Assembly: GCA_016215455.1 (NCBI GenBank)
Contig: JACRJP010000004.1
Span: 155,787-219,786, forward strand
From: Candidatus Tayloriibacteriota bacterium
GTDB lineage: Bacteria > Patescibacteriota > Minisyncoccia > Phycocordibacterales > PALSA-1337
DNA length: 64,000 nt
Direction of reading: 5' to 3'
Shown: one piece after another, positions 158-62,247 of the stretch
Layout: the number at the start of each line of letters is the position of its first letter
Numbering within the stretch: position 1 is the first letter of the stretch
The notes under the pieces: model-generated
Told to the model about the DNA's origin: nothing
Seen by the model: only the letters and a program-made list of their open reading frames with translations
Database searches by the model: none
Program-made: the position numbers and the translations under genes

Positions 158-631
158 ATGTCCTTTGGACCAAAGGCTTTAATTGTCCCCACCGAGACCA
201 TACTTCCACTTCGGTGGCGTGTCCTACGTCCCAACGCACCAAGCCCTGATGAGGCAAGATTTCCGGAAGACGAAATCTTTCCCAACTGGCACATCGGTAT
301 CTTTCCTGGAACATTGCTTGTTCCACGAAATGATCAACTGATGTGTTGTGCTACCTTCGTCCTCACATCAGCCGGAACCATTGTCGCTTGGCAGTTACGA
401 GGAATGGCAACTGCCCCAGAACAACGTGGCCGTGGACTTGGGAGGATCTTGCTCACACGGGCCGAGGAATACATCCTGTCGTTAAGCAGAGTTGCCCCCG
501 TTATTCTATGGTGCAATGCACGCATCGAAGCGGTGGAGTTCTACGAAAAACTCGGCTGGAAGAAAGAAGGGATTGAATTCATCATCAAAGGCATTGGCCG
601 ACACTATCGAATGACTCGGCGCCTGCGATAA
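158..631 (+). CDS. GNAT family N-acetyltransferase (GC-rich island)
   Basis: 157 aa. Motif QLRGMATAPEQRGRGLGRILL matches the GNAT acetyl-CoA binding motif A (Q/R-x-x-G-x-G/A). GC is about 50% against a background of about 38%. Confidence 0.7.
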   Translation: MSFGPKALIVPTETILPLRWRVLRPNAPSPDEARFPEDEIFPNWHIGIFPGTLLVPRNDQLMCCATFVLTSAGTIVAWQLRGMATAPEQRGRGLGRILLTRAEEYILSLSRVAPVILWCNARIEAVEFYEKLGWKKEGIEFIIKGIGRHYRMTRRLR

Positions 632-689
632 CTATCCCACTTTCGGGAATTTTTATTTCTATACAGTAGGGTGATATAATTGAATACTA

Positions 690-1259
690 ATGAAACTCAC
701 CATTGCCATCATTGCTGCGATCCTTGCAATTATTGGTAATGTTCCCTACCTCATTGATATCTTTAAGAAGAAAGTTGAACCTCATGCGTACACATGGTTT
801 GTATGGACAATTGTGTCTGGAGTAACTTTCTTTGGCCAGGTTGCAAAAGGAGCGGGTGTTGGGGCACTACCTACTGCAGCTTCTGAAATTTTTACACTTA
901 TTATTTTTATCTTCTCTCTCCGATATGGTTTCAAACATGTCACCAAAACCGACACAGTATTTCTTATAATTGCATTACTTGGACTTATTCCATGGGCTCT
1001 CACCAAGGACCCAACGATATCAGTTATTATTGTCGTAACTATTGATGTAATCGCCTTTATTCCCACTCTTCGAAAAACTTGGCTCAATCCAGGGACAGAA
1101 ACCCCGCTGTTATACGGTACGAATGCTCTTCGACATATCCTCGCACTGTTCTCACTTCAGGCATATAATATTGCAACAGTACTTCATTCATGCACCATGA
1201 TTGTTACCAACTCATGTATGACAGGAATCATCATGAAGCGACGAAACAAAAAAATATAG
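690..1259 (+). CDS. Hypothetical polytopic membrane protein
   Basis: 189 aa with several hydrophobic helices. An extended -10 element TGATATAAT lies at 672-680. No recognisable family. Confidence 0.4.
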   Translation: MKLTIAIIAAILAIIGNVPYLIDIFKKKVEPHAYTWFVWTIVSGVTFFGQVAKGAGVGALPTAASEIFTLIIFIFSLRYGFKHVTKTDTVFLIIALLGLIPWALTKDPTISVIIVVTIDVIAFIPTLRKTWLNPGTETPLLYGTNALRHILALFSLQAYNIATVLHSCTMIVTNSCMTGIIMKRRNKKI

Positions 1260-1280
1260 TACTATATACAAATACACTCT

Positions 1281-2203: not shown

Positions 2204-3154
2204 ATGCGAATTTTTTTATCAAAATTACTTAACATACTTGGAATCATTGGGCTTTTAGGAGTCATTGCATATCTTGCTACAACAAATCTCCCAAAGATAA
2301 AAGATCTTCTATTTCCCCCTGAACCATGCGAACGTCCGATTTCGTATTCCCTCGATACAATTGATCTTCGATTTAACGTTTCAACAACTGAATTAATATC
2401 TATTCTCAATCAAGCAGCAAACGTATGGGAACAAGCAGCTAATAAAGATCTTTTTGTGTATGTCCCAGAAGACACGGGTACTGTAAAGATTAATCTTCTC
2501 TACGACTACCGACAAAAGACAACAAAAGACCTACAAACTCTCAACACAGTAATTGATCGAGATCAAACCACCTACGACGGTATTAAACTCACGTACGACA
2601 ACCTCATACGATCATACGGCCAACAGAAGCTAACATTCGAACAACACCTAGCTACATTCAAAAGAAATCAAGCAGAGTATGAACAACAAGTGCAATATTG
2701 GAATAAAAAAGGTGGCGCACCTCGAAATGAATACAATAATCTTGAACAAGTACGACAATCTCTCAACGTAGAGGCAGAAAATATTAAACGAGAACAAGAT
2801 GCTCTTAATTCTCTCATTCCTACTATCCGATCAACAGAAAATGAACTCAACACTCTAGCAAAGAAACTCAATCTTACCGTTTCAAATTTTAATACAACAG
2901 CGTCATCAGTCAAAGAAGAATTCAATGAGGGTGAATATATAAGCGACTCTGAAGGAGAAAGAATAAATATTTATCAATTTGATACTAAAGAAAAATTACT
3001 TCGTGTCATGATTCATGAACTTGGTCATGCTCTAGGACTTGACCATAATGATAATCCTCAAGCGATCATGTATCGTCTTAATTCAGGTAGTACCGTCAAA
3101 CTTGCAACTGAAGATGTTGCAAGTCTCAAACAACTTTGCAAGTTGACAGAATAG
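2204..3154 (+). CDS. Zinc metalloprotease, metzincin (matrixin-like, HExxHxxGxxH)
   Basis: HELGHALGLDH followed by a Met-turn (IMY). N-terminal TM helix. Confidence 0.55.
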   Translation: MRIFLSKLLNILGIIGLLGVIAYLATTNLPKIKDLLFPPEPCERPISYSLDTIDLRFNVSTTELISILNQAANVWEQAANKDLFVYVPEDTGTVKINLLYDYRQKTTKDLQTLNTVIDRDQTTYDGIKLTYDNLIRSYGQQKLTFEQHLATFKRNQAEYEQQVQYWNKKGGAPRNEYNNLEQVRQSLNVEAENIKREQDALNSLIPTIRSTENELNTLAKKLNLTVSNFNTTASSVKEEFNEGEYISDSEGERINIYQFDTKEKLLRVMIHELGHALGLDHNDNPQAIMYRLNSGSTVKLATEDVASLKQLCKLTE

Positions 3155-3201
3155 GTTGTGAGTATTAGTTTTGAAGATAGATTCAACCTTACATTCACCC
3201 C

Positions 3202-3435
3202 GTGAAACTCCACTTGCTTAGGCTTTTGGCCCACATTCTGTTATGGGTATCAAACCTCATCACCATCGGCTTTATCTTGGTATTCCTCACCCGAGGGATC
3301 TTTGATGTAAGCGCATCCCTTTGGAATGGTCTCTTCTACGAGCCATCCTATGGCTTCTTGTTCTTGGCAGCCAATGCGACTGTCATGATTGGAACAAGCT
3401 TAACCCTCTTCATTGGAAAGAAAGGCTCACAATGA
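3202..3435 (+). CDS. Small membrane protein, possible half-transporter partner of the next gene
   Basis: 77 aa with two hydrophobic helices. Its stop overlaps the next start in an ATGA arrangement (translational coupling). Confidence 0.3.
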   Translation: MKLHLLRLLAHILLWVSNLITIGFILVFLTRGIFDVSASLWNGLFYEPSYGFLFLAANATVMIGTSLTLFIGKKGSQ

Positions 3436-3866
3436 GCTGGCAACACTTTTCCTTAGCTTCGTGTTTTCTGTGGGGCTTAACTGGAATCTTTTGCATCAAG
3501 GCGTCAGCAACGGGTCAGAACAACACAGTGTCTTTCCTAGCTTACGTCATCGCATTTGTGTTCACAGCCTTTACAACCTCAATCTCCCAACTTCGGAGTG
3601 GGATGACCTATGATGGAAAGTCACTAGGATTTGCATTCGGTGCTGGGCTCTGTTCAGCTCTCGCAATTATCCTTCAATTCAAAGCACTTGCAGGTTGGAA
3701 AGATCAATCTGCGTGGATCGTGCTCATTGGATGTTTGAATGGAGTAATTGTGGTGCTATACACCCTGTTCTCAGGAGAACGATTCTCCGTGACAAAGTGG
3801 ATGGGTGTCATTTTTGCCATAGTAGCCATTGTGCTCCTCAACTGGCCAAGCAAAGAATCGCGATAA
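3432..3866 (+). CDS. EamA-like (DMT superfamily) small membrane protein
   Basis: Start taken at the internal Met MSWQHF, which overlaps the upstream stop. Four predicted TM helices. The C-terminus GVIFAIVAIVLLNW is typical of an EamA domain. Confidence 0.35.
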   Translation: MSWQHFSLASCFLWGLTGIFCIKASATGQNNTVSFLAYVIAFVFTAFTTSISQLRSGMTYDGKSLGFAFGAGLCSALAIILQFKALAGWKDQSAWIVLIGCLNGVIVVLYTLFSGERFSVTKWMGVIFAIVAIVLLNWPSKESR

Positions 3867-3912
3867 ACTTTGCATTTTTATTTAACACAATAACTAGTGC
3901 TACAATACTAAA

Positions 3913-4077: not shown

Positions 4078-4090
4078 GAACAACATCATC

Positions 4091-9959: not shown

Positions 9960-9988
9960 TTGTCAAAATGATATTTCCGTGATAAATT
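9960..9988 (+). promoter_or_regulatory. Putative promoter TTGTCA-17nt-TAAATT upstream of the GC-rich kinase-like gene
   Basis: Hexamers read directly; 47 nt upstream of the ATG at 10036. Confidence 0.3.
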
Positions 9989-10035
9989 CACGGGCAGATT
10001 CGCGCAAAATTCACAACTGAACGGAAGCACGTCAC

Positions 10036-10827
10036 ATGGAAACACCTCCCACTCTGGCATCTCTTTTGGGTCCAATCTCCCATGAAATTTCATTTTGTAT
10101 CGTGGGTGGTCCACCAGCAGGTGGTGGATCTCTTCGAGGTGAATTGGTTGCTGGGGCCTGTCGAGACCTTCATGGAAACTTGTTGATCGGTGTCGACTTC
10201 ATCGACATCAGGCCACACATCATCGAACCTCACGTTCGTGATCAAACACCTCTTGGGCTTGAGTTTCTTGCCCACATGGCCAAACAAAAAAACGGGGGTC
10301 TTCAACCGGATACCCCTATCGCCAAAGGGCTCGCAGGCAAAATCATTGAACATCACGAAAAAGGAGTTCGACAGATTGTCTTGCGTGGATACCCACGTAA
10401 CACATTTCAGGCAGGAGAGTTGATCAGCGTTGGTGCGCCAATCAAGACGGTGTTGTTTCAACGAGATCTTGAAGAGTGCAAACGCAACTTCAACAATCCT
10501 TCTCGTCGTGCGGCAAGTCGGGATGATGACGCTGTGGTTCAACAATTGGTCGGGAGATTCGAAAACACATGGCTCAAGGAGACTCTCCCAGCACTAAGGA
10601 AACTGCGCCGGCACGCTCTTAGTCGAGATGGCTCGACTTATCACGAACGGAAAACTCCACCGACGGGACCTGATCTAGCAGCTGACATTCTGTTTCTGCT
10701 CCAACATGGACTGACAATGAGCACCGAAACACTCATTCAAATAATCGCCAATCTGGCGAATAACGAACATCCTGCTGGTCAAAAATTACGACTCTGCACG
10801 GAAGAAGATCGCCGACGGACACTATAA
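10036..10827 (+). CDS. Adenylate kinase (NMP kinase) family homolog with degenerate P-loop (GC-rich island)
   Basis: The P-loop reads IVGGPPAGGGS in place of GxPGxGKGT, so the Lys is missing. VLRGYPRNTFQAGEL matches the adenylate kinase segment LLDGFPRTxxQAxAL. RDDDAVVQQLVGRFEN resembles the LID / C-terminal region. GC is about 52%. Confidence 0.45.
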   Translation: METPPTLASLLGPISHEISFCIVGGPPAGGGSLRGELVAGACRDLHGNLLIGVDFIDIRPHIIEPHVRDQTPLGLEFLAHMAKQKNGGLQPDTPIAKGLAGKIIEHHEKGVRQIVLRGYPRNTFQAGELISVGAPIKTVLFQRDLEECKRNFNNPSRRAASRDDDAVVQQLVGRFENTWLKETLPALRKLRRHALSRDGSTYHERKTPPTGPDLAADILFLLQHGLTMSTETLIQIIANLANNEHPAGQKLRLCTEEDRRRTL

Positions 10828-10997
10828 CTGCACCCACAAGGTCAGTATTTTTATTTCATTTCCTCGAGTAGTACTCATCACCATATCATTGACTATGATA
10901 ATATTTTATGGTAAAAAATATCTAGAAAGCTAAGGTTATGGTTCTCTACCACTAACCTCCTCACATCAACCAACAAAAAGGTTTCAGCCTCTTTTGT

Positions 10998-11894
10998 ATG
11001 CCTAAGAAAAAATCCAACAAAGAAGAGAAACCGAATTCTCTTTTACTCGTCGCACTATTCCTCCTAATTGGAATCGTGCTCATATGTATACCTTTCATTG
11101 GAAATCTTTTGGGACCAACACCTCCCCGCCCACTAACAGCGTCAGAAATTCACGAAAAAGCTCTAGGCTTGGGATTGATCGGTGCTCCCCCGCACATTGA
11201 AGAACGTCACGTCTCCATCAGCAGTCATTCTCACGCATACGGCAGGAATGGAGACATTCCCGTCCATATCGTATCTCGCACCAATTCGACAGAATCATGG
11301 AAATTGGTAGGAACAGGAACCCTCCTCGGTAAATACACAAACCACGTGCTTACTGCCTACCATGTATTCGAGGATCATGCGGGACAATATGGGTATCGAC
11401 ACATCGGTCCCAACGAGTTTACTGGGAATGAGAAAGTCGTTCCCATCATCTCAGTCAAGGACGATGAAGGAAAAGGAAGCGATGTTGTTATTAGTATATC
11501 TGATCCAACTCGTAGTGAATTTCCGGTATTGACTGTGCCCCGCTCAAATAGCATTCCTAATGGATTTGATGCCGATCAGACCTATATGATCGACACGATT
11601 CAACGGGACATATCGTTCTCCACCTACCCTCATCGAAGCATTAGCACGTTCGTAAAGACAAAAATGACTGAGGCGGGTGCAAATTATGTCTTCATTAACT
11701 GGGTAGCAATGCCAGCTGAGAGTGGAACGTCAGCAATACTTGAAGGTGAGGATTCAAACAGTTATGTAGTCATCATTCGAGGGCAAGCCTTGCCTAAAGA
11801 ATTTTACGACAAACTTTCAGAAGAGGTTCAGCAAACCCTGTCATGGACACCAGAAAAGATGTATGCGGTAGGTAACTTCATTCGCATCGATTAA
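10998..11894 (+). CDS. Membrane-anchored trypsin-like (S1) serine protease-like protein
   Basis: N-terminal TM helix. Candidate catalytic triad context: His in LTAYHV, Asp in GSDVVISI, Ser in AMPAESGTSA (GDSGGP-like). Confidence 0.35.
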   Translation: MPKKKSNKEEKPNSLLLVALFLLIGIVLICIPFIGNLLGPTPPRPLTASEIHEKALGLGLIGAPPHIEERHVSISSHSHAYGRNGDIPVHIVSRTNSTESWKLVGTGTLLGKYTNHVLTAYHVFEDHAGQYGYRHIGPNEFTGNEKVVPIISVKDDEGKGSDVVISISDPTRSEFPVLTVPRSNSIPNGFDADQTYMIDTIQRDISFSTYPHRSISTFVKTKMTEAGANYVFINWVAMPAESGTSAILEGEDSNSYVVIIRGQALPKEFYDKLSEEVQQTLSWTPEKMYAVGNFIRID

Positions 11895-12033
11895 GTGTCC
11901 TCTTGGTTTTTTATTTCACAGTTTCTTAGTTATACGCCGACTATATAAGGATAGTTTGACATTGAGGCCAAAATTTGTTTTAATTGAACAACAAATTTTA
12001 TGGGCTACGGCCCGCTTTTAATTAGGTTTATTT

Positions 12034-13863: not shown

Positions 13864-13904
13864 ATATACTATATATTGACATATATAGTATATCAATGTA
13901 GAAT
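13864..13904 (+). promoter_or_regulatory. Perfect 13-nt inverted repeat (ATATACTATATAT-TGAC-ATATATAGTATAT) overlapping a TTGACA-17nt-TAGAAT promoter
   Basis: The palindrome spans 13864-13893, TTGACA sits at 13876-13881 and TAGAAT at 13899-13904. It lies between the typA stop and the GC-rich ORF at 13950. Confidence 0.35.
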
Positions 13905-13949
13905 ATTTTTAGGTTCATCAGCTCCGATTCAAATCAACCCCCTCGTTTC

Positions 13950-14804
13950 TTGATGAAATTTGTTCTGCCACTCATTTCTCTGGCTCCACTTCCCTTATTT
14001 GACCTCGATGGCGTGCTCAGAAAAATCCATGAGGCACACTTCACTGGAATCGAAGTTTTGCTTGGCCCAAAAGTGGACCATGCCAAAATCCGCACTCTGG
14101 CACAAACTCACGGTCTCAGTATCAATTGGCACGAAATCTGGTCTCTCACGGACAATCCGACTCACCACGTCAACTATCTCTTGGCGGCTTTAGGAAGAAT
14201 CCCTTGGAAGACCCATCCCCTCAACAGTCAACTTCCCCTAGCGCTCAGCGAGCCTGTTGTCTGTTATGGACATCGTATAGAAGAAGTTCTAGGATACCGC
14301 GACACTAAGCTCCTGTGGCTCCAAACTTGCAAGGTTATGAGCCGGCACTTGCCCTACAAGGAGTTTGTAAAACTTGTCCAAAGATATCGTCTCCCAATCG
14401 TCTTCGATACCCAACATGTCCTTGAATGGATGTGCGACGCCAATGGAGTTACAGAACTCGGTCGACTTCATTCCTCTGAAGAACTCCAACGTCTCCTTCT
14501 TAAAGCATGGGATGACCTCAGTCCCTACACAGAAGAAATCCATGTGGTTAACTTCAAACCACAAGATGGCCACACTAGGGGACGCAACATTTTCTTAAAC
14601 GAAGGAGGTGTCCTCAAGCTCAGAGAATTCGGTCGTGTGGTCAAAAAGAGTGACTGGAACGGTACAATAACCCCTGAGATCGCTCCTGCACACTTCTCCA
14701 CCTTAAGGATTCCTGGTGTTCCCATCAATCTACTGTGGGAGTCGGAACATCTCGGACATCGACTTCTTGAGTTGCGAGAAATCGTAGGGGGTATATTTTC
14801 CTAA
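13950..14804 (+). CDS. Sugar phosphate isomerase/epimerase-like (xylose isomerase-like TIM barrel) protein (GC-rich island)
   Basis: LPIVFDTQHV and EEIHVVNF resemble the metal-ligand motifs of the AP_endonuc_2 TIM-barrel family. GC is about 50%. Confidence 0.35.
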   Translation: MMKFVLPLISLAPLPLFDLDGVLRKIHEAHFTGIEVLLGPKVDHAKIRTLAQTHGLSINWHEIWSLTDNPTHHVNYLLAALGRIPWKTHPLNSQLPLALSEPVVCYGHRIEEVLGYRDTKLLWLQTCKVMSRHLPYKEFVKLVQRYRLPIVFDTQHVLEWMCDANGVTELGRLHSSEELQRLLLKAWDDLSPYTEEIHVVNFKPQDGHTRGRNIFLNEGGVLKLREFGRVVKKSDWNGTITPEIAPAHFSTLRIPGVPINLLWESEHLGHRLLELREIVGGIFS

Positions 14805-14814
14805 CAACAAGCAA

Positions 14815-14860
14815 CTGGTAGTATTCAATGCTTAAGCAACGAGTTCTACCGGCTTTTTAT
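14815..14860 (+). terminator. Weak hairpin plus T-run between convergent genes
   Basis: CTGGTAG (14815-14821) pairs with CTACCGG (14846-14852) through one G-U, followed by CTTTTTATTT. Confidence 0.25.
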
Positions 14861-14866
14861 TTATAA

Positions 14867-26195: not shown

Positions 26196-26224
26196 TTGAC
26201 AGATAATAATCTCAGTAGTAGAAT
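26196..26224 (+). promoter_or_regulatory. Putative promoter TTGACA-17nt-TAGAAT
   Basis: Read directly from the sequence; 44 nt upstream of the GC-rich ORF at 26268. Confidence 0.4.
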
Positions 26225-26267
26225 TGTTCGCTAGATCCATCGTAACTGTTCCACCCTATACCCCAGT

Positions 26268-26774
26268 ATGCCTCACGACGCAACAACAGTAGCGGAAGGA
26301 CCGCTAGCTCCCGTCAAAGTGTTCGCGATCACATGTCGCGATCCGAGATTCAAACCCTTCTTTTTGAAACTCCTTGAGGGAATCACAGAAGGGATCACGA
26401 ATGGCTACTTCCGACTGACACAGTTTGGAGGAATTGCTCACCTGAGTGAAAACCTCCCTATCAGTCGCCGCTTCGCCCGATCCATCACCGATGAGATGGT
26501 CATGGGCTGTGGCTTGATGAAACCCGAGGAGCTTGTCCTCGTAACTCATCAGAACTGCGCCGGTTGCAAGACCCTCAACTACATCACAGACGGTGAAGAG
26601 GATGCGGTATTCCAGAAACGAAAACTGGTGGCCGCCACACGGAAACTCCTTCCTCTCGCCCGTCGTTGCGACACCCTCGCGACGATCAGATGTTTCCATG
26701 TGTATGCGAACGGCACATGGGAGGAATTGGCTCCGACTCCCGTAAAACGGCGTCGAAAGAAATCTAAGGCTTGA
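26268..26774 (+). CDS. Hypothetical protein with a CxxC motif (GC-rich island)
   Basis: 168 aa at about 53% GC. THQNCAGC motif and a basic C-terminal tail. No family recognised. Confidence 0.4.
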   Translation: MPHDATTVAEGPLAPVKVFAITCRDPRFKPFFLKLLEGITEGITNGYFRLTQFGGIAHLSENLPISRRFARSITDEMVMGCGLMKPEELVLVTHQNCAGCKTLNYITDGEEDAVFQKRKLVAATRKLLPLARRCDTLATIRCFHVYANGTWEELAPTPVKRRRKKSKA

Positions 26775-26803
26775 CCGAAGAATTTCAACAATTTTTATTC
26801 AAC

Positions 26804-30010: not shown

Positions 30011-30037
30011 AAGCAATATTTGAGCTACAAAATAAAA
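30011..30037. repeat. 27-nt direct repeat copy A (AAGCAATATTTGAGCTACAAAATAAAA); copy B is at 31664-31690
   Basis: The two copies differ at a single position (G/A) and bracket the GC-rich gene at 30085-31515 together with its promoter and terminator. Confidence 0.6.
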
Positions 30038-30063
30038 GACCCGCGGCACGTCAGTGTCGCGGG
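30029..30063 (-). terminator. Rho-independent terminator of the 30085-31515 gene
   Basis: 10-bp GC-rich stem (CCCGCGGCAC / GTGTCGCGGG with one G-U) with tetraloop GTCA, followed on the minus strand by CTTTTATTTT. Confidence 0.5.
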
Positions 30064-30084
30064 CTGCTTTGTGGAAAGATTCCC

Positions 30085-31515
30085 TTAGGGTCTAACCATG
30101 CGATAGAACTTGAGGTCACTTTCCGTATCGAACTTGTAACCACGAAGACCATCCTCAGCCATGGAAAGCGTTTCGATGAGACTCCATGACTTGAGGTCAG
30201 GCGAGCCTTCGAGACGATAGGCTGTATCCGGCTGTCCCGACATGAGAATGTTCACGTAAGTGAAACCTGCGGGAGCCAGACTGATACTGACCGTCGCGGG
30301 CCACACGTAAGGATCGAGGTTCATGCCGTTAAGCGTCGCACGCGTAATGGGTCCAACAAAACCTGTTGCTGGAATTCCGTTAGCAGCTTGAAATGCTTTG
30401 ACTCCTGCTTGGGTAAGTTCACCGAAGTAAGGGCTGCCATCCACCTCATACGTCTCGAGGGAAACACCCAAGAACCGTTGCAGGATGAGCACGTCATAAC
30501 CAACACTGCCGACAGTCAGATTCGTCGCAAAAAGGAATCGTGCAAGCGACCTGACTACGATACCTTGATTGGCATTGTTGATCGTCGGCAGAAGTTGATA
30601 TCCCAACGCGTCCGTAGCTGTTCCAAAAGAACCACATTCCGCACTCAGGGTTACCCCTGTCGGGAAATTCGTTCCGAGGATACCCGTCACGATGAACTGA
30701 TGAATCCCCTTCGGAATCTTGATATCGCCATTGAAGACGACTCCGCTTGAAACCTTGTTGTCAAAGGGTATTGCATCAAAGGATCCACCGATCTGCGTGC
30801 CATTTTCGTCGGTCAGGGTAATTGATTGAGTGATAGCCCTCTCACCCCCCGACAAATTGAACGCGACAGAAAAATACGGAATTGTGACATCCGTGCCCTC
30901 CACGGTTACCGTAAACTTGGCAAGCACAACAGGATTTGTGCTTCCTTGCACCGATGTAGGCGCAGTGGTATTTTGAATGTCGAGCTTTCCTACAACGACG
31001 TTGGTATCGATCGTGTAGAAATTTCCACGAATCGGGAACGGAGTTGCAAATGTGACCCGATCAGACAACTCAGTGAAATATCCATCAGCCGCAGCTCCGA
31101 CGACTTCGAGTCCAACATTTTGCCCTTGGAAGAGCGTGAGATCGGAAGCGAATTGGGCGGAGATGACTACGGTATTGGTCTCACCCTGCGTGAGAAATAT
31201 CGGGCCCACGAGTATGGGAGAGTGAGGAAGAAATCCAAAAGGACCTCGACTTATCTCCTTCAGGTCACTTCCGACATAAATGCCGGTCATAGGATTTCCA
31301 TTCCATAGTGAGTTTCCCATTGGTTGCACTGCAAGATACAGCGGCGGAGGGAACTTTTTGTCGCTCTCAGTCACGAGGACCGTGAGCATGGGCACAATAG
31401 CCCCCTGGGCAGCCGACATAAGTGGTGGTTGATTGGTCGTCTCCAGGATGGAGAACGTGGTGGCATAGACACGGAGGAAGCTCACAAGAGCCAGGACCAA
31501 CAATGAGATCTTCAT
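30085..31515 (-). CDS. Secreted protein with C-terminal peptidoglycan-binding (PG_binding_1-like) domain (GC-rich island)
   Basis: Start at MKISLLVLALVSFLRVYA (signal peptide). The segment VGYDVLILQRFLGVSLETYEVDGSPYFGELTQAGVKAFQAANGIPATGFVGPITRATL matches the PG_binding_1 consensus. Confidence 0.5.
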   Translation of the reverse strand: MKISLLVLALVSFLRVYATTFSILETTNQPPLMSAAQGAIVPMLTVLVTESDKKFPPPLYLAVQPMGNSLWNGNPMTGIYVGSDLKEISRGPFGFLPHSPILVGPIFLTQGETNTVVISAQFASDLTLFQGQNVGLEVVGAAADGYFTELSDRVTFATPFPIRGNFYTIDTNVVVGKLDIQNTTAPTSVQGSTNPVVLAKFTVTVEGTDVTIPYFSVAFNLSGGERAITQSITLTDENGTQIGGSFDAIPFDNKVSSGVVFNGDIKIPKGIHQFIVTGILGTNFPTGVTLSAECGSFGTATDALGYQLLPTINNANQGIVVRSLARFLFATNLTVGSVGYDVLILQRFLGVSLETYEVDGSPYFGELTQAGVKAFQAANGIPATGFVGPITRATLNGMNLDPYVWPATVSISLAPAGFTYVNILMSGQPDTAYRLEGSPDLKSWSLIETLSMAEDGLRGYKFDTESDLKFYRMVRP

Positions 31516-31591
31516 GGTTTTCAGTGAACAGACGTTATAGTGATATTCAAGGCTTCTACGCATAGGCGTAAAAATCAAGAATCTGCCAAAT

Positions 31592-31621
31592 ATTATACCA
31601 TATAATACTACATATAGTCAA
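31592..31621 (-). promoter_or_regulatory. Putative promoter TTGACT-18nt-TATAAT for the 30085-31515 gene
   Basis: Reverse complement of 31592-31621 reads TTGACTATATGTAGTATTATATGGTATAAT. Confidence 0.4.
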
Positions 31622-31663
31622 TCTTCTAGAAGTAACAAAAACCATCACTGATTGTCTGTAAAG

Positions 31664-31690
31664 AAGCAATATTTAAGCTACAAAATAAAA
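31664..31690. repeat. 27-nt direct repeat copy B (AAGCAATATTTAAGCTACAAAATAAAA)
   Basis: Matches 30011-30037 at 26 of 27 positions. Confidence 0.6.
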
Positions 31691-31701
31691 ATCGAGGACC
31701 A

Positions 31702-31974
31702 CTAAGGCACTCTTCCTAACACAACCACGAGAAAGGCATCAATGAAACCGAGACAGAGGCTCTTGGGCAAACTCACCTTTCCATAGCCAAAGCAATGTAA
31801 ACTCGACCATCGTGCCATGAAGGCAACAAAGCCGGCGATGATATGCGTGAGGACCAAAAGCGGCACCAAGAGCTCACGGTTTTGCTTGCCGCACAAAACA
31901 GCAAGACCCACCATCAAACCAACAACATACACGATGACCACACGGTCACCTCTATTTAAGGGAATTATTCTCAT
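31702..31974 (-). CDS. Hypothetical small membrane protein
   Basis: About 90 aa with three hydrophobic helices. The ORF is open to 32034; the start is uncertain. Confidence 0.2.
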   Translation of the reverse strand: MRIIPLNRGDRVVIVYVVGLMVGLAVLCGKQNRELLVPLLVLTHIIAGFVAFMARWSSLHCFGYGKVSLPKSLCLGFIDAFLVVVLGRVP

Positions 31975-32082
31975 GGGAGTAGCAAAGAATTCTAGAGATG
32001 TAATATCATATATATAAAATAAGTTCAACAACAAAAAACAGCCATCTCTGGCTGTCTTTTGTTAAACGTATATTTTCTAAAA

Positions 32083-38948: not shown

Positions 38949-39832
38949 TATTCGGTTATATTATTTCTCACACATTTGAGACCCAAAAGTTATCCACAGT
39001 CCCCTTAACGCAAAAATACCTTTCCGGGATGAAAACGTCGGAAAAGGTTGTGGGTTTAAAGGATTGTAGAGCGTGGGTTGCTCAAAAAGGACCAATTTAA
39101 GCCTTGTAATCCTTCATGCGGCGGGCGTGACTCAATCAGCTGAAGTTGAGATGAACTCTATAGGAAGACATGATGTTTGTCAACAAAGCTTTCTCTCCTA
39201 TTCCCCTACAATCTAACTAAATAAAAATAAAGCATGTCATCACCAGTGGTAGCTAGGAACACAGTCTAGCTTTCTGAACAATCCCCAAACGAGTTTTCGT
39301 GCCGGGTTTGAGACGTGCGCTTGCAAAGATCTTGACCGGCGCATCAGAGGAATGATGTCCATTACCAAGACCTTTACGGACCGCCTTATCGTGAGCTTGG
39401 CGAGATTTACTACCCGCCCGACGAGTGCCATTGTGGTGTCGCTTCATACAACATAAGGGAGAACTGAACTACTTCCGCTAGAATACGATGATAAGCAAAA
39501 TAAAAAAATGTGTCAAATAAAAATTGGCACTTCTCAGAAGGAGTTGTACCGAACGAGACAGGTAGTCGTTTACCGCCTCAGCGTCTTGTGACCCGGCGCC
39601 TGCGCAACGCGACCTCCCGCGAGCTTGGTGCCGGGCTTGATTCTGGTAGTGTGGACGACGGGTGAACCTTTACGACCGTGTGACGACATGGTGAGGAACG
39701 GGTTTGGTTATGCTGTTGTTACACTAAGGAGCAATCACGGATATATCAATAGATTTCCTACGCGACTGATCCGGGAAAGTATGGTACGCTTCTTTTTGAA
39801 ATACGTCAAGGATACCTGGGGAAAGGTGTTAT

Positions 39833-50233: not shown

Positions 50234-50333
50234 ATACCCGCCAGTATACATTAATTTCCCATAAAGGCAAGAGGTTACAGGCCATATACGGTATAAAGAG
50301 AATATCTGTAAAATTAATAAAAATTTGGCTCAT

Positions 50334-50897
50334 TCAATCTCGAAGAATGTCGAGCCGATGCAAAACGGTCCCAAAACTTTCTTGTTCCGGACCAGAGAGG
50401 TATTTCAGATAGGCGTTGGCCGCCTGAATGAACCCCTCCCTGTGATTTGCAAAACACCACCGCATAAAGACCTCAAGAGGAACTGGGCGTGCCCAGATGT
50501 AATCTCCATCAGGCTCCCTGCGCCAATCAGCTTGATTGATGTCAGGGAAAACATGTGAGGTTGCGGTCGGCAATGTCGTGAAGACTGGCGTAATATTGCT
50601 TACCCGCCACTCCGTGACGAGAAAGAAATACTTGGTGTGACTCGCGTAACTGCGATCACAAAAGGCTTCCGAGGAACTGATGACCGAGACACCTGTCTCG
50701 TTCAAGAGCTCTCTCGCTAAACAATGTTGAGGAGATTCTGACTCCTCCTTCATCCCCGAACCTCCGGGAAGTTTGACCTCATCGGTGAACCGGCTACTTG
50801 TAACCCCGATTACCGTCCATGTGGCGCCAATCTTGGCAAACATGGCCCCGGCGGCAAAAAACGTCGACGAATCCTTTTTCTTTGATTTCATTGGCAT
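50334..50897 (-). CDS. Nudix hydrolase (GC-rich island)
   Basis: Nudix box LPGGSGMKEESESPQHCLARELLNETGV. GC is about 52%. Confidence 0.65.
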   Translation of the reverse strand: MPMKSKKKDSSTFFAAGAMFAKIGATWTVIGVTSSRFTDEVKLPGGSGMKEESESPQHCLARELLNETGVSVISSSEAFCDRSYASHTKYFFLVTEWRVSNITPVFTTLPTATSHVFPDINQADWRREPDGDYIWARPVPLEVFMRWCFANHREGFIQAANAYLKYLSGPEQESFGTVLHRLDILRD

Positions 50898-50984
50898 CCT
50901 TACTCATGGAGAACCTTAAAAAATCACACGAATACATCGTGCGCGTGAGTGTTTGAAAATCACATCAAGGTTCTAGCTAAAATG

Positions 50985-51013
50985 ACTATACTACATAATA
51001 TAAATATAGTCAA
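50985..51013 (-). promoter_or_regulatory. Putative promoter TTGACT-17nt-TATAGT for the GC-rich Nudix gene
   Basis: Reverse complement of 50985-51013 reads TTGACTATATTTATATTATGTAGTATAGT. Confidence 0.3.
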
Positions 51014-57616: not shown

Positions 57617-57650
57617 TAAAAGAACCGACATATGTCGGTTCTTTTATTAT
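57617..57650. terminator. Bidirectional terminator; 24-nt perfect palindrome AAGAACCGACATATGTCGGTTCTT sharing its core with the 26.8 kb terminator
   Basis: Core AACCGACATA..TATGTCGGTT is identical to the stem at 26804-26832. It sits between convergent genes. Confidence 0.55.
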
Positions 57651-57704
57651 ATGTTTCAGACAGCTGTACTCAGTAATTTAGACATTTTATACCCTCGCAA
57701 ACCT

Positions 57705-59057
57705 TTATATCTTACTCTTATTAAAGAGAAGATACATAACAGTTCCGAAGAGTACGAAGATAACAATAATTGCTACTGCGCCCCAAGGAACATTGTTGAG
57801 AGCAAGGAATGAAGATGCTGTCTGTGCTGATGCCTCTGGAGTTGCTGCAGGCTTTGCGGCAACAACAGGAGCCGTAGACTTACGAGCAACTTGCTGTTTG
57901 TAATTAACCTGGACACTTGTTGCACATGTAGTTGAGACTGTTCGTCCAGCTGAAGTAACAGTAACCGTAGCACTCTTACTTCCTGTTGCAGGATATGCCG
58001 TCACCGTCATTCGCTGTGAACCAATGAGTCCATCAGTACCTGTCCATGAGTATGCATAGACACCATTACCTCCAGTCGGAGTAGCTGTCCACGTAATTGG
58101 TGTACTTGGTGCTACATCTGTCTTATCTGGATAACATGTCACACCGAGAGTACCTGCTGTTGTATTTCCGTAGTATGAAGTATTTGTTGGGATACCAATA
58201 TTTACGTAACCACATGATTGAGTAACAACTCGTCCATTTGAACGAACAGTTACATTCGCAAACTTAGGACCAGTCGCATTGTATCGAACATTTGTATATG
58301 AATCTCCACCATAGATATGGTCACTGCCTGTCCATGAATATGTGTAGTATCCTGAACCGCCAGTAACAGAAGCTGTCCATGTAACATATTCACCAACCTG
58401 AGCAAAATTAACTGAAGGAGAACAGATTACTGAAATAGGTCCTGAGTCATAGTAACGGCCATCATAACGATTGTTACTGTAATCATAGTAATCGTATGAA
58501 TAATGACGATCGTTGTAATACGGTCCATCATAGTCATCATAACGACTTTCAACAGTTACAGAGTTTGAACAAGAAATTCGAATAGATTGATTTCCTGATG
58601 TAATTCGTACAGAAGCATTCTTTATACCAGAGTTACTGTATGAACGATAGAGAGTTGAACCTGATCCATTAAGACCATCAGTTCCATCCCAATCATACGA
58701 ATAACTACCTGTACCACCGTAGGCGTTAGCTCTCCATGTTACCGTTGTACCAGTTCGAGCATATGTAGGGTCGACATTACAAGAACCACTCAAAGAACCC
58801 TGGTATGGAGGATATGTTGGATATGAAGTGTTGTAATCACTATACACAACAGGAACTACACCAGGTGTAATAACAGTACCACCAGGACTATTAACGTTAC
58901 TATTAACGTTGTTACTGTTGGTATTATTAATCACTGATGGCTGATCATCTTCAAACACTCCGAATGGATCAAGAGGGTTAAAAGCTTGTGCAGAGATCGG
59001 AAACACAGACAAAACAAGCGCAATCGCAAGAATGCCGAAAATATTATTTTTATTCAT
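57705..59057 (-). CDS. Cell-surface protein with signal peptide, three Cys-bracketed PKD-like repeats and a C-terminal TM anchor
   Basis: Start at MNKNNIFGILAIALVLSVFPISAQA (ATG at 59057, preceded by an AGGAAA ribosome-binding site). Three repeats of about 80 aa, each with C...V(T)W-x-A...GG-x-G-x-Y-x-Y-x-W-x-G-(S/T)-D...C, e.g. YSWTGSD, YDWDGTDG, YSWTGTDG. C-terminus WGAVAIIVIFVLFGTVMYLLF. Confidence 0.5.
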   Translation of the reverse strand: MNKNNIFGILAIALVLSVFPISAQAFNPLDPFGVFEDDQPSVINNTNSNNVNSNVNSPGGTVITPGVVPVVYSDYNTSYPTYPPYQGSLSGSCNVDPTYARTGTTVTWRANAYGGTGSYSYDWDGTDGLNGSGSTLYRSYSNSGIKNASVRITSGNQSIRISCSNSVTVESRYDDYDGPYYNDRHYSYDYYDYSNNRYDGRYYDSGPISVICSPSVNFAQVGEYVTWTASVTGGSGYYTYSWTGSDHIYGGDSYTNVRYNATGPKFANVTVRSNGRVVTQSCGYVNIGIPTNTSYYGNTTAGTLGVTCYPDKTDVAPSTPITWTATPTGGNGVYAYSWTGTDGLIGSQRMTVTAYPATGSKSATVTVTSAGRTVSTTCATSVQVNYKQQVARKSTAPVVAAKPAATPEASAQTASSFLALNNVPWGAVAIIVIFVLFGTVMYLLFNKSKI

Positions 59058-59148
59058 ATATTTGTTTCCTATATTAGTCATGGTAAGCATTATATATTAT
59101 ATTTACTGAAAAGTCAATAGCACTAAAAATAGCTTACACAAAGGGTCT

Positions 59149-59523
59149 TTATCCAACCCTACCCCCATACAGAAGGGCCTGAATCTTAAGATTAGGCGGT
59201 TGCTGCCACGATCGGTTAGTCAGAGCGATCTCAACGTATGGGGTTTCAGGACCCAGATCAGGAGATGGAATTCTGGCGGTCAATATCGGAAGACGCGTAT
59301 CGTCCTTCCTTTCGACAATCAAACCGTTCCCTATAAAGAATTGCTTCACAATATCGACAAAGGTTTCATCTGCGACTGGCTCTTCGAGAAGGATCTCGAA
59401 GTCACTATCAGGCATTTGAGCCAATGGATTAGGATTGAGTTGTCCCTCAAAAACCCCAACGAGATAGTCCGAGAGACCTACACGAGGATCGATAGAAGTA
59501 GATCCGAGTTTTTTTACACTCAT
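59149..59523 (-). CDS. Hypothetical protein (GC-rich island)
   Basis: 124 aa at about 50% GC. No recognisable family. Confidence 0.3.
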   Translation of the reverse strand: MSVKKLGSTSIDPRVGLSDYLVGVFEGQLNPNPLAQMPDSDFEILLEEPVADETFVDIVKQFFIGNGLIVERKDDTRLPILTARIPSPDLGPETPYVEIALTNRSWQQPPNLKIQALLYGGRVG

Positions 59524-59585
59524 GAGTCAGAGATGTATGTGGTGTGATACGAAGAGTTTTCTCTCAATAACTTATCAGACCCCTA

Positions 59586-61679
59586 CTATATGTCAATTGT
59601 CGCTTTCTTTGCGTTTGATTGGATAAACAACTTACGTGAAGGTACATCAGTACCCATGAGCATATCAAAAATCTTATCAGCTTCCTGAGCATCTTCAATG
59701 TTCACCTTCTTCAAGATACGTCGTTCAGGATCCATAGTTGTTTCCCAAAGTTCTTCTGAGTTCATCTCTCCGAGACCCTTGTATCGCTGGATCGTAACCT
59801 TCTGAACTCTCTTCCCCTTTCCATCATCTACCATTTCAACTTCGCGATCAGCATCATCTGCAGGCGCATCAGCTCGTTCAAGAAGTTCGTCACGACCAGT
59901 CTCATCCAACGGATTTATCTCCGGAGTATCATTACCAAGTTCTTTGATCTTATCTTCATCATTGTAGAAATACATGATTTCTTTACCACGCTTCACTTTG
60001 TATAGTGGTGGTTGGGCGATGTAAATGTATCCACCTTCAACGAGCGGACGGAAATATCGGTAAAAGAGTGTGAGAAGAAGTGTACGAATGTGAGCACCGT
60101 CAACGTCGGCATCAGTAGCAATGATAATTTTGTGGTAGCGAAGCTTTGAAAGATCGAATGTATCTGCAATCGCAGTACCAAGAGCCAACACGAGATTTTT
60201 AATTTGCTCAGAACCAAGCATTCGATCAAGTCGAGCTCGTTCGATGTTCAAGATTTTTCCTCGAAGAGGAAGAATCGCTTGGATACGTCGATCACGACCA
60301 GTCTTTGCTGTTCCTCCCGCAGAGTCTCCCTCCACAATGAAGAGTTCTGATTCTGAAGCGTCGCGTGTCTGACAGTCAGCGAGCTTACCTGGCAATGTCA
60401 TACCTTCAAGGACTCCCTTTCGAAGAACACTGTCCTTAGCCGCCTTAGCAGCTTTACGTGCCTTGAGTGCAAGAACTACTTTACCAATGATTGCTCGCGC
60501 ATCATCAGGATTTTCTTCAAGGAAAGCTGCGAATGCTTCTCCAAAGACGTTTTCTGTTGCTCCTCGAGCCTCAATACTTCCGAGTTTTGCTTTTGTTTGA
60601 CCTTCAAACTGAATTTCTCGCATCTTTATCGACACAGCAGCTGTAAGACCTTCTGCGACATCATCTCCAGTGAAATTATCTTCACTTTCTTTGACGAGAT
60701 TGTTCTTACGAGCATACGCATTGAGTGTTCGCGTAAGGGATGTTTTGAAACCGGTAATATGTGTACCTCCTTCACTGTTATAGATATTGTTTGCAAATGG
60801 AAGAACACGTGACGAAATATCATCAACATACTGGAGAGCAATTTCAACTGATTCAACACCTTCTACTTGCTTTTCAATATAGAAAACATTCTTATGGATC
60901 GGCTTCAAGATCTGATTAGTGAATCGAACAAGAGAAACAAGACCTCCTTCAAAGAAGAAGGTATACGAAGGTGCGTCAATAGCAAGATCACGGAAATAGA
61001 ATACATCTTCAAGATCAGGTATTTTTGCTGCTCCTCGAGCATCGATCACAGAGATACGGAGACTTGGTACGAGATATGCCTGCTGTCGCATGTAACTAAC
61101 AATTCGATGAAAATCAAATGTCTGCTTTCCGAAAATAATTTCGTCAGGTGTAAAAGTTACAATTGTTCCATTACGCTTTGTAGAACCAAGTTTTTTTGTT
61201 GCTGCTTTTTTCTTTCCCTGAGAATATTCCTGAAAGAAATGTCCTTCATCTATTTTATGTACGTCAACTCGACAATAAACTGAGAGTGCGTTAACTACCG
61301 ATGCTCCCACACCGTGAAGACCTCCAGAAACCTTATATCCTTCTCCGCCGAATTTACCTCCGGCATGGAGTACTGTCATGATTGTCTCAAGAGCAGAAAC
61401 TTTTGTCTGCTTATGAATACCTACTGGAATACCTCGGCCGTTGTCAGTTACACGAACAGTCTCATTAGGGAGAAGTACTATTTCAATATCATTCGCATGA
61501 CCTCCCATCGCTTCGTCACGAGAGTTATCGAAGATTTCATTAATGAGATGATGAAAACCATCAGGTCCTGTAGTACCAATGTACATTCCGGGACGCTTTC
61601 GAACTGGATCAAGACCTTCAAGAACTTGGATCGAATCGGCTCCGTAATTACTCTTCTTTTCAGCTGGTTCTTTAGCCAT
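59586..61679 (-). CDS. gyrB: DNA gyrase subunit B
   Basis: GHKL ATPase N-terminus (LEGLDPVRKRPGMYIGTTG...HHLINEIFDNSRDEAMGG), Toprim domain EGDSAGG, and a C-terminal tail. Confidence 0.93.
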   Translation of the reverse strand: MAKEPAEKKSNYGADSIQVLEGLDPVRKRPGMYIGTTGPDGFHHLINEIFDNSRDEAMGGHANDIEIVLLPNETVRVTDNGRGIPVGIHKQTKVSALETIMTVLHAGGKFGGEGYKVSGGLHGVGASVVNALSVYCRVDVHKIDEGHFFQEYSQGKKKAATKKLGSTKRNGTIVTFTPDEIIFGKQTFDFHRIVSYMRQQAYLVPSLRISVIDARGAAKIPDLEDVFYFRDLAIDAPSYTFFFEGGLVSLVRFTNQILKPIHKNVFYIEKQVEGVESVEIALQYVDDISSRVLPFANNIYNSEGGTHITGFKTSLTRTLNAYARKNNLVKESEDNFTGDDVAEGLTAAVSIKMREIQFEGQTKAKLGSIEARGATENVFGEAFAAFLEENPDDARAIIGKVVLALKARKAAKAAKDSVLRKGVLEGMTLPGKLADCQTRDASESELFIVEGDSAGGTAKTGRDRRIQAILPLRGKILNIERARLDRMLGSEQIKNLVLALGTAIADTFDLSKLRYHKIIIATDADVDGAHIRTLLLTLFYRYFRPLVEGGYIYIAQPPLYKVKRGKEIMYFYNDEDKIKELGNDTPEINPLDETGRDELLERADAPADDADREVEMVDDGKGKRVQKVTIQRYKGLGEMNSEELWETTMDPERRILKKVNIEDAQEADKIFDMLMGTDVPSRKLFIQSNAKKATIDI

Positions 61680-61800
61680 ATTTATAGTTTTTTATGTGTA
61701 AATTATACCAAAAAATAGCCATAAATTCTCTATTGACTGTGGGAAAAGTGAGTGGTAGTGTGAGGCAAGAAAAACAGACAGAACAACACAGAACATATCC

Positions 61801-62247
61801 ATGCACACAACCACTCTCTGGGACCTCACCAAAGGATTCGAAGCCATTTTTAACAGTCCAACATTTGCAGGCCAAAACTGGCCACAGTTTGAGCATCGTG
61901 CGTTGCACGATCTCTCCTCCGGCCATTTCCTCGATCGCGGTTATGAAGTCGTGCGCGGGGAGGTTGGAAGGCTACCTATCTTCCTTCAAGGTGGTAGCGA
62001 CCGCGTCGAGCTAATCGCTTCAGACGTGCCGCCACACATCGCCTATGCCACGCGGCACTTCAGCGATTTGAGAGCCCTCATGAACCATCTCGTCGAGAGT
62101 AAGGAGTTCGAACTCGTCGAGGGAGGACGGTTCGACGTTGATCGCAACGACTTACGGGCAGTGCTCCTCAAGCACGTGACCTCGGGTGATGTCATTCAAC
62201 TCATCTGGCGGCATAAACAGATCTTTAGAGGAGTATTCCCAGAATAA
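61801..62247 (+). CDS. Hypothetical protein (GC-rich island)
   Basis: 148 aa at about 55% GC. A putative TTGACT-17nt-TAGTGT promoter lies upstream near 61731-61759. No family recognised. Confidence 0.3.
   Translation: MHTTTLWDLTKGFEAIFNSPTFAGQNWPQFEHRALHDLSSGHFLDRGYEVVRGEVGRLPIFLQGGSDRVELIASDVPPHIAYATRHFSDLRALMNHLVESKEFELVEGGRFDVDRNDLRAVLLKHVTSGDVIQLIWRHKQIFRGVFPE

Follow-up and report, generated by a model that had tools for sequence, protein, structure and literature searches.

The 64,000-nt stretch of DNA analyzed here (hereafter the window; positions 155,787 to 219,786 of contig JACRJP010000004.1, assembly GCA_016215455.1, forward strand) belongs to an uncultured, ultra-small Candidatus Tayloriibacteriota bacterium known from a metagenome-assembled genome (Ca. 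Taylorbacteria, Paceibacteria) and consists of conserved housekeeping genes, between which lie approximately 13 single-gene units, or islands, of approximately 50% GC. The conserved genes are typA, truB, hisS, uppP, rpoD, dnaG, rpoC, rpoB, trmD, rpsP and RNase R, as well as smc, rnc, rpmF, rnhB, dnaE, thrS, gyrB, pheT and a NusB-Nudix fusion; type IV pilus genes and an AddA-type helicase are also encoded. The nearest species-level genomes share 78% identity in GyrB and the nearest metagenome contigs 83% in TypA, and all of the nearest relatives are Paceibacteria/Parcubacteria-type Patescibacteria. Comparison with 80 GyrB loci and 80 TypA loci of relatives by tblastn and open reading frame (ORF) maps (approximately 170 loci overall, L001-L171) reveals two widely kept gene orders, pilus operon-typA-(bPH/Schlafen gene)-truB-hisS and gyrB-thrS-dnaE-rnhB-rpmF-nusB-rnc-smc. 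The GC-rich islands sit between pheT and gyrB, on the gyrB-thrS side, between rnhB and rpmF, between rpoC and dnaG, on the flanks of typA and between trmD and rpoB, in keeping with a first-pass annotation that had placed eight of them between housekeeping genes. They are probably accessory genes of a low-GC Taylorbacteria chromosome, most of them imported from higher-GC Patescibacteria and lodged in gaps that are used recurrently.

The GC content of the window is 41.3%, or 40.3% with the islands masked, rather than the 38% or so first given for the backbone. Among 41 core genes, the GC content at third codon positions (GC3) is 0.293 ± 0.039 with a maximum of 0.376. All eight ORFs listed in the first-pass annotation are compositional outliers (GC3 0.42-0.60, z 3.2-7.8 against the core), and five more are found at 3202-3866 (an EamA-like pair), 10998-11894, 31702-32034, 39253-39447 and 39570-39689, so that z spans 3.2-9.8 overall. 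The weakest outliers are an adenylate kinase-like (AK-like) gene at 10036-10827, whose GC excess falls mostly at codon positions 1 and 2, and the ORF at 59149-59523. At third codon positions the islands use the four bases almost equally (A.22, C.28, G.22, T.28), in contrast to the core values of A.31, C.15, G.15 and T.40. As G3 and C3 are both approximately doubled, this is a shift in composition and not selection for C-ending codons. Codon usage deviates from that of the host: pooled over the islands, it correlates with that of relatives of 44-50% GC at r up to 0.69, and with that of the window's own core at 0.51. Promoters and 3′ motifs included, the units add up to approximately 9.1 kb, or 14% of the window, and have 47.3% GC; the step in composition falls exactly at their boundaries. 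Of the approximately 50 window ORFs that encode 100 aa or more, about 8 have a GC3 exceeding the median by 0.15, a share above that in the relatives' loci. Known RNA genes were rejected as an explanation for the GC-rich stretches, since scanning the entire window for tRNAs and against Rfam returned no tRNA, tmRNA (transfer-messenger RNA) or Rfam family that accounts for them.

The islands share a characteristic layout made up of a TTGAC(A/T/G)-16/18-TAnnnT promoter, a moderately GC-rich leader of 30-90 nt lacking a Shine-Dalgarno sequence, the ORF and, 9-50 nt past the stop codon, the motif (A)TTTTTATTT or a close variant. A strong -35/-10 pair followed by a leader of 25 nt or more precedes 10 of 13 islands and 7 of 41 core genes (Fisher p = 1.4e-4). 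TTGAC(A/T)-17/18-TAnAAT-type promoters had been proposed upstream of six ORFs; such a promoter is present at five, and the AK-like gene is the exception, with TTGTCA. Over the window as a whole, promoter-like matches show no enrichment (38 found vs. 51 expected, first 20 kb), and good matches precede core genes too, at 59117, 39183, 40967 and 41461. Core genes with an upstream gap mostly have a -10 box, often TGn-extended, without a -35 box or Shine-Dalgarno sequence, and this box lies 3-11 nt before the ATG in 15 of 41 core genes vs. none of 13 islands (p =.011). Examples of such -10-only starts, with a TAnAAT/TATAGT box, are at 690, 16722 and 52238 on the forward strand and at 21443, 26845, 28139, 45647, 48293, 51639 and 57705 on the reverse. 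Because the box is so near to the ATG, these genes are taken to be leaderless, and the sequence suggests that the core genome of this organism is as a rule transcribed into leaderless mRNAs. A literature search on leaderless translation in Patescibacteria returned nothing relevant.

At the 3′ end of the units, the exact 9-mer TTTTTATTT has 14 copies in the window where 2.1 are expected, and lies within 60 nt past the stop codon in 9 of 13 island ORFs but in none of 41 core genes (p = 1.3e-7). Eleven copies stand just past the stop of a same-strand standalone gene, nearly all of them GC-rich ORFs (at 650, 3875, 10848, 11908, 14854, 48286 and 62259 on the forward strand and 31691, 39227, 39506 and 39523 on the reverse); one of them stands behind 47965-48276, a small standalone ORF whose GC is ordinary. 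In the strain contig L084, just upstream of the window, two ORFs enriched in GC (7295-7852 and 8864-9295) also end with TTTTTATTT. In most units a small hairpin (3-7 bp) ends 1-4 nt ahead of the T-tract, and this T5AT3 tract is most likely the U-tract of intrinsic terminators that are often weak. The first-pass annotation gave several ORFs a terminator of their own; this holds for two, a peptidoglycan (PG)-binding protein gene (-16.7 kcal/mol) and a TIM-barrel gene (-15.2 kcal/mol, z -4.3), whose hairpins are strong, whereas those of most other units are weak. Core transcription units have canonical hairpin terminators (26801-26836, 32038-32055 and 57608-57655) or none. In the relatives, GC-atypical standalone genes carry TTGACA promoters, leaders and ordinary hairpin terminators. 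A five-fold enrichment of TTTTTATTT in these genomes was discounted, as most of the copies lie within coding sequence (gyrB FYFEGG, lysine-rich N-termini) and show no association with gene ends, and the motif-after-gene pattern is thus specific to this species. Separately, the bidirectional hairpin terminators at 26801-26836 and 57608-57655 have a common core, AACCGACATA(GT)ATGTCGGTT, which suggests a terminator module reused at convergent gene ends.

The first unit in the window, encoding a GNAT acetyltransferase (93..658, forward strand), has the promoter TTGACA-17-TAAATT at 93-121, a 36-nt leader, the ORF at 158-631 and TTTTTATTT at 650-658. The ORF (GC.51, GC3.49, z 5.2) matches Pfam Acetyltransf_1/7/10, and in L084 differs by 5 synonymous and 4 non-synonymous single-nucleotide polymorphisms (SNPs). 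An EamA-like membrane-protein unit (3143..3883, forward; GC3.48, z 4.7; Pfam EamA, E 6e-8) is made up of the ATGA-coupled ORFs 3202-3435 and 3432-3866, with a weak promoter candidate at 3143-3171 and TTTTTATTT at 3875-3883. No gene is called there in the Logan annotation of L084, and for this reason the pair may be decaying.

Two units precede typA and one follows it. The AK-like unit (9960..10856, forward) has the promoter TTGTCA-17-TAAATT at 9960-9988, the ORF at 10036-10827 (GC.50, GC3.42, z 3.2) and TTTTTATTT at 10848-10856; its protein has a weak NCBIfam adk match (E 9.5e-4) and 22 remote homologs. This protein carries GGPPAGGGS in place of the adenylate kinase GxPGxGKGT and so misses the P-loop lysine. 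Its homologs in relatives retain GxxGxGKS/T, and with its P-loop degenerate it may be a pseudo-kinase. The next unit (10889..11916, forward) encodes a membrane-anchored hypothetical protein (ORF 10998-11894; GC.45, GC3.43, z 3.5) from TTGACT-17-TAAAAA at 10889-10917 and a leader of about 80 nt, and ends in TTTTTATTT at 11908-11916; no Pfam or NCBIfam family matches it, and its 90%-identity cluster holds strain variants only. A xylose-isomerase-like TIM-barrel protein (Pfam AP_endonuc_2; GC3.48, z 4.8) is encoded at 13876..14862 (forward), where the promoter TTGACA-17-TAGAAT at 13876-13904 precedes the ORF at 13953-14804, its strong hairpin and TTTTTATTT at 14854-14862.

A hypothetical protein of 168 aa (unit 26196..26800, forward) has the promoter TTGACA-17-TAGAAT at 26196-26224, a 43-nt leader, the ORF at 26268-26774 (GC.53, GC3.57, z 7.2) and TTTTTATTC at 26792-26800. 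It has no family in four libraries, and a single-sequence AlphaFold2 model was uninformative (predicted local distance difference test score, pLDDT, of 48). With 7 synonymous and 1 non-synonymous SNPs between strains, it is nevertheless a coding gene under purifying selection.

The secreted PG-binding protein (unit 30011..31690, reverse) is encoded at 30085-31515 (GC.50, GC3.54, z 6.3; Pfam PG_binding_1) behind the promoter TTGACT-18-TATAAT at 31621-31592, and is followed by a GC-rich hairpin at 30040-30063 and TCTTTTATTTTG at 30039-30028. Only its 60-residue binding domain has homologs, and 12 synonymous and 6 non-synonymous SNPs separate it from strain contig L175. Its gene and promoter are enclosed by a 27-nt direct repeat, TTTTATTTTGTAGCTYAAATATTGCTT, at 30011-30037 and 31664-31690 on the reverse strand (26/27 identical; 2 matches vs. 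0 expected). Adjacent to it (31683..32034, reverse) lies a small membrane-protein ORF, 31702-31974 (to 32034 from a TTG start), with TTTTTATTT at 31691-31683. This ORF (GC3.50, z 5.4) is called as a 90-aa gene in L175; no Pfam family and no convincing promoter of its own were found.

Between trmD and rpoB, two small and very basic ORFs that have the peptide R[IL]KPGTK in common are arranged in tandem on the reverse strand. Protein B (64 aa; 39219..39516; GC3.45, z 3.9), annotated by NCBI as HZA80_03510, has the promoter TTGACA-17-TATCAT at 39516-39488, the ORF at 39253-39447 and TTTTTATTT at 39227-39219. The putative protein A (39 aa; 39498..39809) has the promoter TTGACG-17-TACCAT at 39809-39781, the ORF at 39570-39689 and TTTTTATTT at both 39523-39515 and 39506-39498; its GC3 of.68 (z 9.8) comes from only 40 codons, and it is missing from the protein collection. 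A promoter candidate for the neighboring rpoB at 39183-39155 implies a leader of approximately 200 nt.

The remaining units lie toward gyrB and pheT. A Nudix hydrolase (50314..51013, reverse; GC.51, GC3.55, z 6.7; Pfam NUDIX) is encoded at 50334-50897 with the promoter TTGACT-17-TATAGT at 51013-50985, an 87-nt leader and TTTTTATTAA at 50323-50314. One gene (rpmF) away from this separate island, the core gene at 49035-49994 on the reverse strand encodes the NusB-NUDIX fusion. A 124-aa hypothetical protein (59123..59596, reverse) has TTGACA-16-TAAGTT at 59596-59569, overlapping the end of gyrB, the ORF at 59149-59523 (GC.47, GC3.42, z 3.4; a singleton cluster on 3 contigs) and TTTTTAG at 59129-59123. 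Lastly, an orphan protein of 148 aa (61733..62267, forward) has TTGACT-17-TAGTGT at 61733-61761, a 39-nt leader, the ORF at 61801-62247 (GC.535, GC3.60, z 7.8) and TTTTTATTT at 62259-62267. Its sole match in 5.8 billion proteins is itself; three other samples contain the gene, likewise between gyrB and pheT, with a protein that is 100% identical.

Are these real genes? Long ORFs arise easily in GC-rich DNA, where stop codons are few, several islands are without homologs or domains, and the 39-aa ORF A, 31702 and 59149 are supported by composition alone, so that chimeric assembly or binning, or chance ORFs in GC-rich non-coding DNA, might be suspected. As an account of the set as a whole this is extremely improbable. 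Independent Logan assemblies from at least three other sequencing runs hold the islands at the same junctions with 98.6-99.2% nucleotide identity, and SRR12113407 supplies one more contig, with 100% identity. Pfam domains are present in five islands (GNAT, EamA, xylose-isomerase-like TIM barrel, PG_binding_1 and NUDIX), the island ORFs display GC1 > GC2 periodicity, the SNPs in 26268 (7:1) and the PG-binding gene (12:6) show a synonymous excess, and no Rfam family or tRNA accounts for the regions. The main islands are real, fixed genes, and assembly artefact and spurious ORFs are excluded for them; ORF A, 31702 and 59149 stand as genes on weaker grounds than the others.

Among the strains, SNPs are equally dense in islands (26 synonymous, 12 non-synonymous) and core (152 and 58) at approximately 0.009 per site. 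Low SNP density was rejected as a sign of a sweep or acquisition: 61801 alone is depleted (1 SNP in 447 bp), and the pooled islands equal the core. This core-like polymorphism, together with the fixation of the islands in these strains and the lack of any donor above 49% identity, leaves the statement that they were recently acquired with no direct support. No presence/absence polymorphism of a GC-rich unit was seen among the strain contigs compared. A strain difference of another kind was found in L084, 99% identical to the window, in which a 619-bp segment with a peptide deformylase gene (13881-14499) takes the place of 57 bp at 4038-4094 in the window, and owing to which the C-terminus of the small ORF 3913-4077 differs between the two. 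This segment was rejected as a GC-rich cassette, its def gene being of ordinary GC.

The units are compositionally foreign and self-contained, as first described, with their own promoters and 3′ motif, and such an architecture raises the question of a dedicated mobile system. In an integron- or moron-like scheme, (A)TTTTTATTT or TTTTATTTTGTAGCTYAAATATTGCTT would be a recombination or target site and the recombinase would be encoded elsewhere. The sharing of a 3′ motif by units with unrelated genes, its exact form confined to islands in the comparison with the core, speaks for such a scheme, as do the direct repeat bracketing the PG-binding unit, the tandem units 10036/10998, 31702/PG and 39253/39570, and the GC-enriched ORFs of L084 that end with the same motif. 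We regard it as very unlikely all the same. The motif is only 9 nt long, lies 1-4 nt past small hairpins and resembles a U-tract; it also follows the standalone ORF 47965-48276, which is not GC-rich, and has no copy consistently upstream of the units. In relatives, moreover, accessory genes that stand alone end in hairpin terminators of the ordinary kind, and the motif shows no link to gene ends. No integrase, transposase or recombinase was found among the window proteins scanned and no tRNA in the 64 kb; apart from the 27-nt repeat, which a direct-repeat search over the window gave as the sole one flanking an island, no att-like structure was found either. The term cassette that was first applied to these units is therefore not supported in the sense of a mobile element. 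A phage or plasmid origin was rejected, as three viral-contig scans, PHROGs and PADLOC gave only generic domains, with no defense or phage signal in the window beyond these.

Comparison with known systems leads to the same view. Classical genomic islands have an integrase or transposase, a tRNA-adjacent site and flanking att repeats, and the units here lack this set. Integron cassettes are promoterless and arrayed beside intI, attI and Pc, with an attC site that is an inverted repeat of 57-141 nt. The units resemble them in being single genes of unrelated function with a common 3′ element, some in tandem. They differ in that each has a -35/-10 promoter of its own, that they are dispersed through the 64 kb without intI or attI, and that they end in a T-tract element of 9 nt. 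Morons are said to be autonomous promoter-ORF-terminator units in phage and prophage genomes. The units here are likewise autonomous, deviant in composition and inserted into a conserved gene order, yet lie in a housekeeping chromosome segment without phage genes.

Many of the sites occupied in the window are empty in relatives. Only 35-37 bp separate typA from the next gene in L112 and L115, at the site of the TIM-barrel gene, and 272 bp separate pilB from typA in L102-L104, at that of the AK-like gene and 10998. The distance is 390 bp from rpoC to dnaG in L021 (31702 and the PG-binding gene), 223 bp from trmD to rpoB in L102 (ORFs A and B), 115-300 bp from pheT to gyrB in at least 10 loci, the closest (L001) included (61801), and at most 75 bp from rnhB to rpmF in 10 of 18 loci (Nudix). 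Empty sites or a patchy distribution at the syntenic position in the sampled relatives are seen for 10998, the TIM-barrel gene, the PG-binding gene with 31702, ORFs A and B, 59149 and 61801. No homolog of the GNAT gene, EamA, 10998, 26268, 31702, 59149, 61801 or the small ORFs was found in the relatives' loci, those of typA searched for 10998 and the 80 of gyrB searched for 59149 among them; the syntenic regions of the GNAT gene (no match in the approximately 170 loci), EamA and 26268 lie outside these loci.

The view of the ORFs as insertions is thus borne out by empty sites for most of them, but not for the AK-like gene. Its closest homolog, P0028, is 35% identical and lies in L171 in exactly this position between pilB and typA, where it is native in composition (GC.44, GC3.37, in a genome of 44.8% GC), and through P0039 the family is linked to same-slot P-loop proteins of L092, L108, L111 and L113. 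Identity to the same-slot ortholog is 32-35% as against 76% for the adjoining TypA, and the gene is an old, very fast-evolving positional ortholog and not an insertion. Same-slot genes, which would speak against insertion if they were GC-rich throughout the clade, also occur in part for two other islands, at approximately 30-33% identity. Nudix genes are found in the rnhB-rpmF slot of three relatives. The one in L022 has native GC; those in L027 and L042, both low-GC genomes, are enriched in GC and 30-33% identical to the window copy. In L097 (TypA 79% identity, 41% GC), a GC-rich TIM-barrel gene directly follows typA and another GC-rich ORF directly precedes it. The window TIM-barrel protein is 33% identical to this same-slot copy but 45-49% identical to copies at unrelated loci in high-GC genomes, a pattern that favors repeated replacement at a hot spot over vertical descent.

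More generally, the contents of the slots differ among relatives, and are often GC-rich genes where the genome is GC-poor (L027 8849-9679, L094 9068-9847, L091 7911-8597 and L080 8979-9827). Hot spots of horizontal gene transfer (HGT) between core genes have reportedly been defined within species and pangenomes. Here too different genomes carry different genes in pheT-gyrB, the typA flanks and rnhB-rpmF, but the recurrence extends across genomes only 65-83% identical in conserved proteins. A stretch of another nature is found at 4706-5443 of L013, a relative of 40% GC; it has 53-54% GC, but its ORFs look non-coding (low complexity, structured) and it may represent an RNA gene instead of an island.

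The TIM-barrel gene is the only island with informative homologs. There are seven, the best of them 49% identical, and they occur only in contigs of 52-57% GC that resemble the candidate phyla radiation (CPR), where their GC is native, and at other loci; the one in L090 lies between rpsP and RNase R, which are neighbors in the window. In these homologs a TTGAC-type promoter and a leader containing AGGAGG precede the gene, and a hairpin with TTTTAT forms the terminator. From such composition and similarity we infer the kind of donor and the direction of transfer. In relatives' loci below 40% GC, 4.6% of ORFs are GC-rich outliers and 0.2% are AT-rich outliers, while in loci above 52% GC the figures are 0.4% and 8.0%. 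This mirror symmetry is a prediction of exchange within a class spanning 26-60% GC and not of a mechanism that raises GC.

Exchange of genes among Paceibacteria fits a kind of process already described for Patescibacteria (PMC12455944, mSystems 2025). In that study up to 13% of Patescibacteria genome length is attributed to HGT, 83% of the detected transfers run between Patescibacteria, and most are not recent (PMC12455944). The phylum and the kind of event are the same here, with approximately 14% of the window atypical, but the units in the window are single genes without mobility genes and GC-richer than their host, and many are orphans that would be invisible to donor-based methods; the uniform promoter, leader and T-tract layout was not found in the parts of that report consulted (PMC12455944). 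The kind of feature is ordinary and known in the group, and it is the occurrence of leadered -35/-10/T5AT3 units beside an apparently leaderless core that is new and modestly interesting.

Several results weigh against import. For no island tested did the donor search yield a protein above 49% identity; 61801 and most of the PG-binding protein are orphans, and all island proteins fall into 90% clusters of 1-4 strain variants. With no high-identity donor, recency and source are undemonstrated, and the view of the islands as recent and unameliorated is drawn from composition alone. The AK-like gene has native GC in L171 yet raised GC here, which simple insertion does not explain. Recombination tracts were looked for in the core genes adjoining islands and rejected: their GC3 (.31 vs..29, p =.28) shows no spill-over and does not rise in the adjoining 60 codons, so no trace of such tracts is left. 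The closest relatives are only 78-83% identical in conserved proteins, which makes insertion boundaries unmappable. The hairpins before the T-tract are weak, with z > -2 at 12 of 15 sites in comparison with shuffled sequence. Finally, the recurrence of Nudix and TIM-barrel genes in the same slots of L027, L042 and L097, GC-rich relative to their hosts, could reflect long residence with maintained GC.

This last point is the basis of an alternative in which the GC-rich ORFs are long-term, fast-evolving residents of no foreign origin, their high GC actively maintained by GC-biased gene conversion in slots prone to recombination, or by selection on mRNA or codon properties of genes that have leaders but no Shine-Dalgarno sequence. 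The divergent AK-like ortholog beside a conserved typA, the GC enrichment of same-slot genes in other low-GC relatives, the missing donors, the core-like polymorphism and the composition step exactly at unit boundaries would all be accommodated. We nevertheless judge it unlikely, as most islands have empty sites in relatives as close as those that carry them, and the TIM-barrel protein is nearer to off-slot copies in high-GC genomes than to the copy in its own slot. A GC-raising mechanism does not predict the 8% of AT-rich outliers in high-GC relatives, and the same-slot AK-like (L171) and Nudix (L022) genes have native GC. Bacterial mutation is AT-biased, and fast-evolving genes are hence expected to lose GC3.

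Import into recurrent gaps, which we favor, would proceed as follows. GC-rich genes occupy a few permissive gaps between conserved housekeeping operons, which most of them would have entered, or been replaced in, by horizontal transfer from Paceibacteria/Patescibacteria of approximately 45-57% GC, probably through DNA uptake plus recombination. The imported genes would retain a donor-like composition with its flat third codon position. Each unit is presumed monocistronic, with a sigma-70-type -35/-10 promoter, a leader of 30-90 nt without a Shine-Dalgarno sequence, the ORF, and a short, often weak hairpin plus T5AT3 U-tract, and these signals of its own would let it be expressed wherever it landed, leaving undisturbed the neighboring core operons, which seemingly use -10-only promoters and leaderless mRNAs. 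The typA flanks, rnhB-rpmF and pheT-gyrB are class-wide recurrent hot spots, in which the same family can reappear in very divergent form.

If this is correct, the window illustrates cleanly, gene by gene, the way in which streamlined CPR bacteria that depend on a host renew a small accessory set (an acetyltransferase, a Nudix hydrolase, a sugar-isomerase-like enzyme, a cell-wall-binding secreted protein and several orphans) while their housekeeping operons stay undisturbed, and transfers among Patescibacteria of differing GC would leave readable scars in both directions. As many such genes are orphans, homology-based detection of HGT fails for them in CPR bins. Should transcript mapping confirm the signal set and the leaderless core, both gene-start calling and the detection of accessory genes in CPR metagenome bins would improve. 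A more far-reaching and rather doubtful proposal is that Paceibacteria exchange self-contained modules (-35/-10, leader without Shine-Dalgarno sequence, ORF, T5AT3) that land repeatedly in the same few gaps beside highly conserved genes, probably via pilus/ComEC uptake and recombination, that in this species these form a regulatory class separate from the leaderless core, and that their GC of approximately 50%, seen also in same-slot members of their families in other low-GC genomes, is kept by continual turnover or by biased gene conversion at hot spots and does not stem from one-off insertions. The accessory genome would then be recognizable from its transcription and translation signals alone.

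Two further genes on the reverse strand of the window, 43414-45582 and 57705-59090, encode secreted proteins that are AT-rich (GC3.23-.25) with an unusually high GC content at second codon positions. Peptidase_S74 domains are intramolecular chaperones of tail-spike and endosialidase proteins; one of the two proteins has such a domain, and the other contains internal 64-nt repeats at 58033-58096 and 58321-58384.

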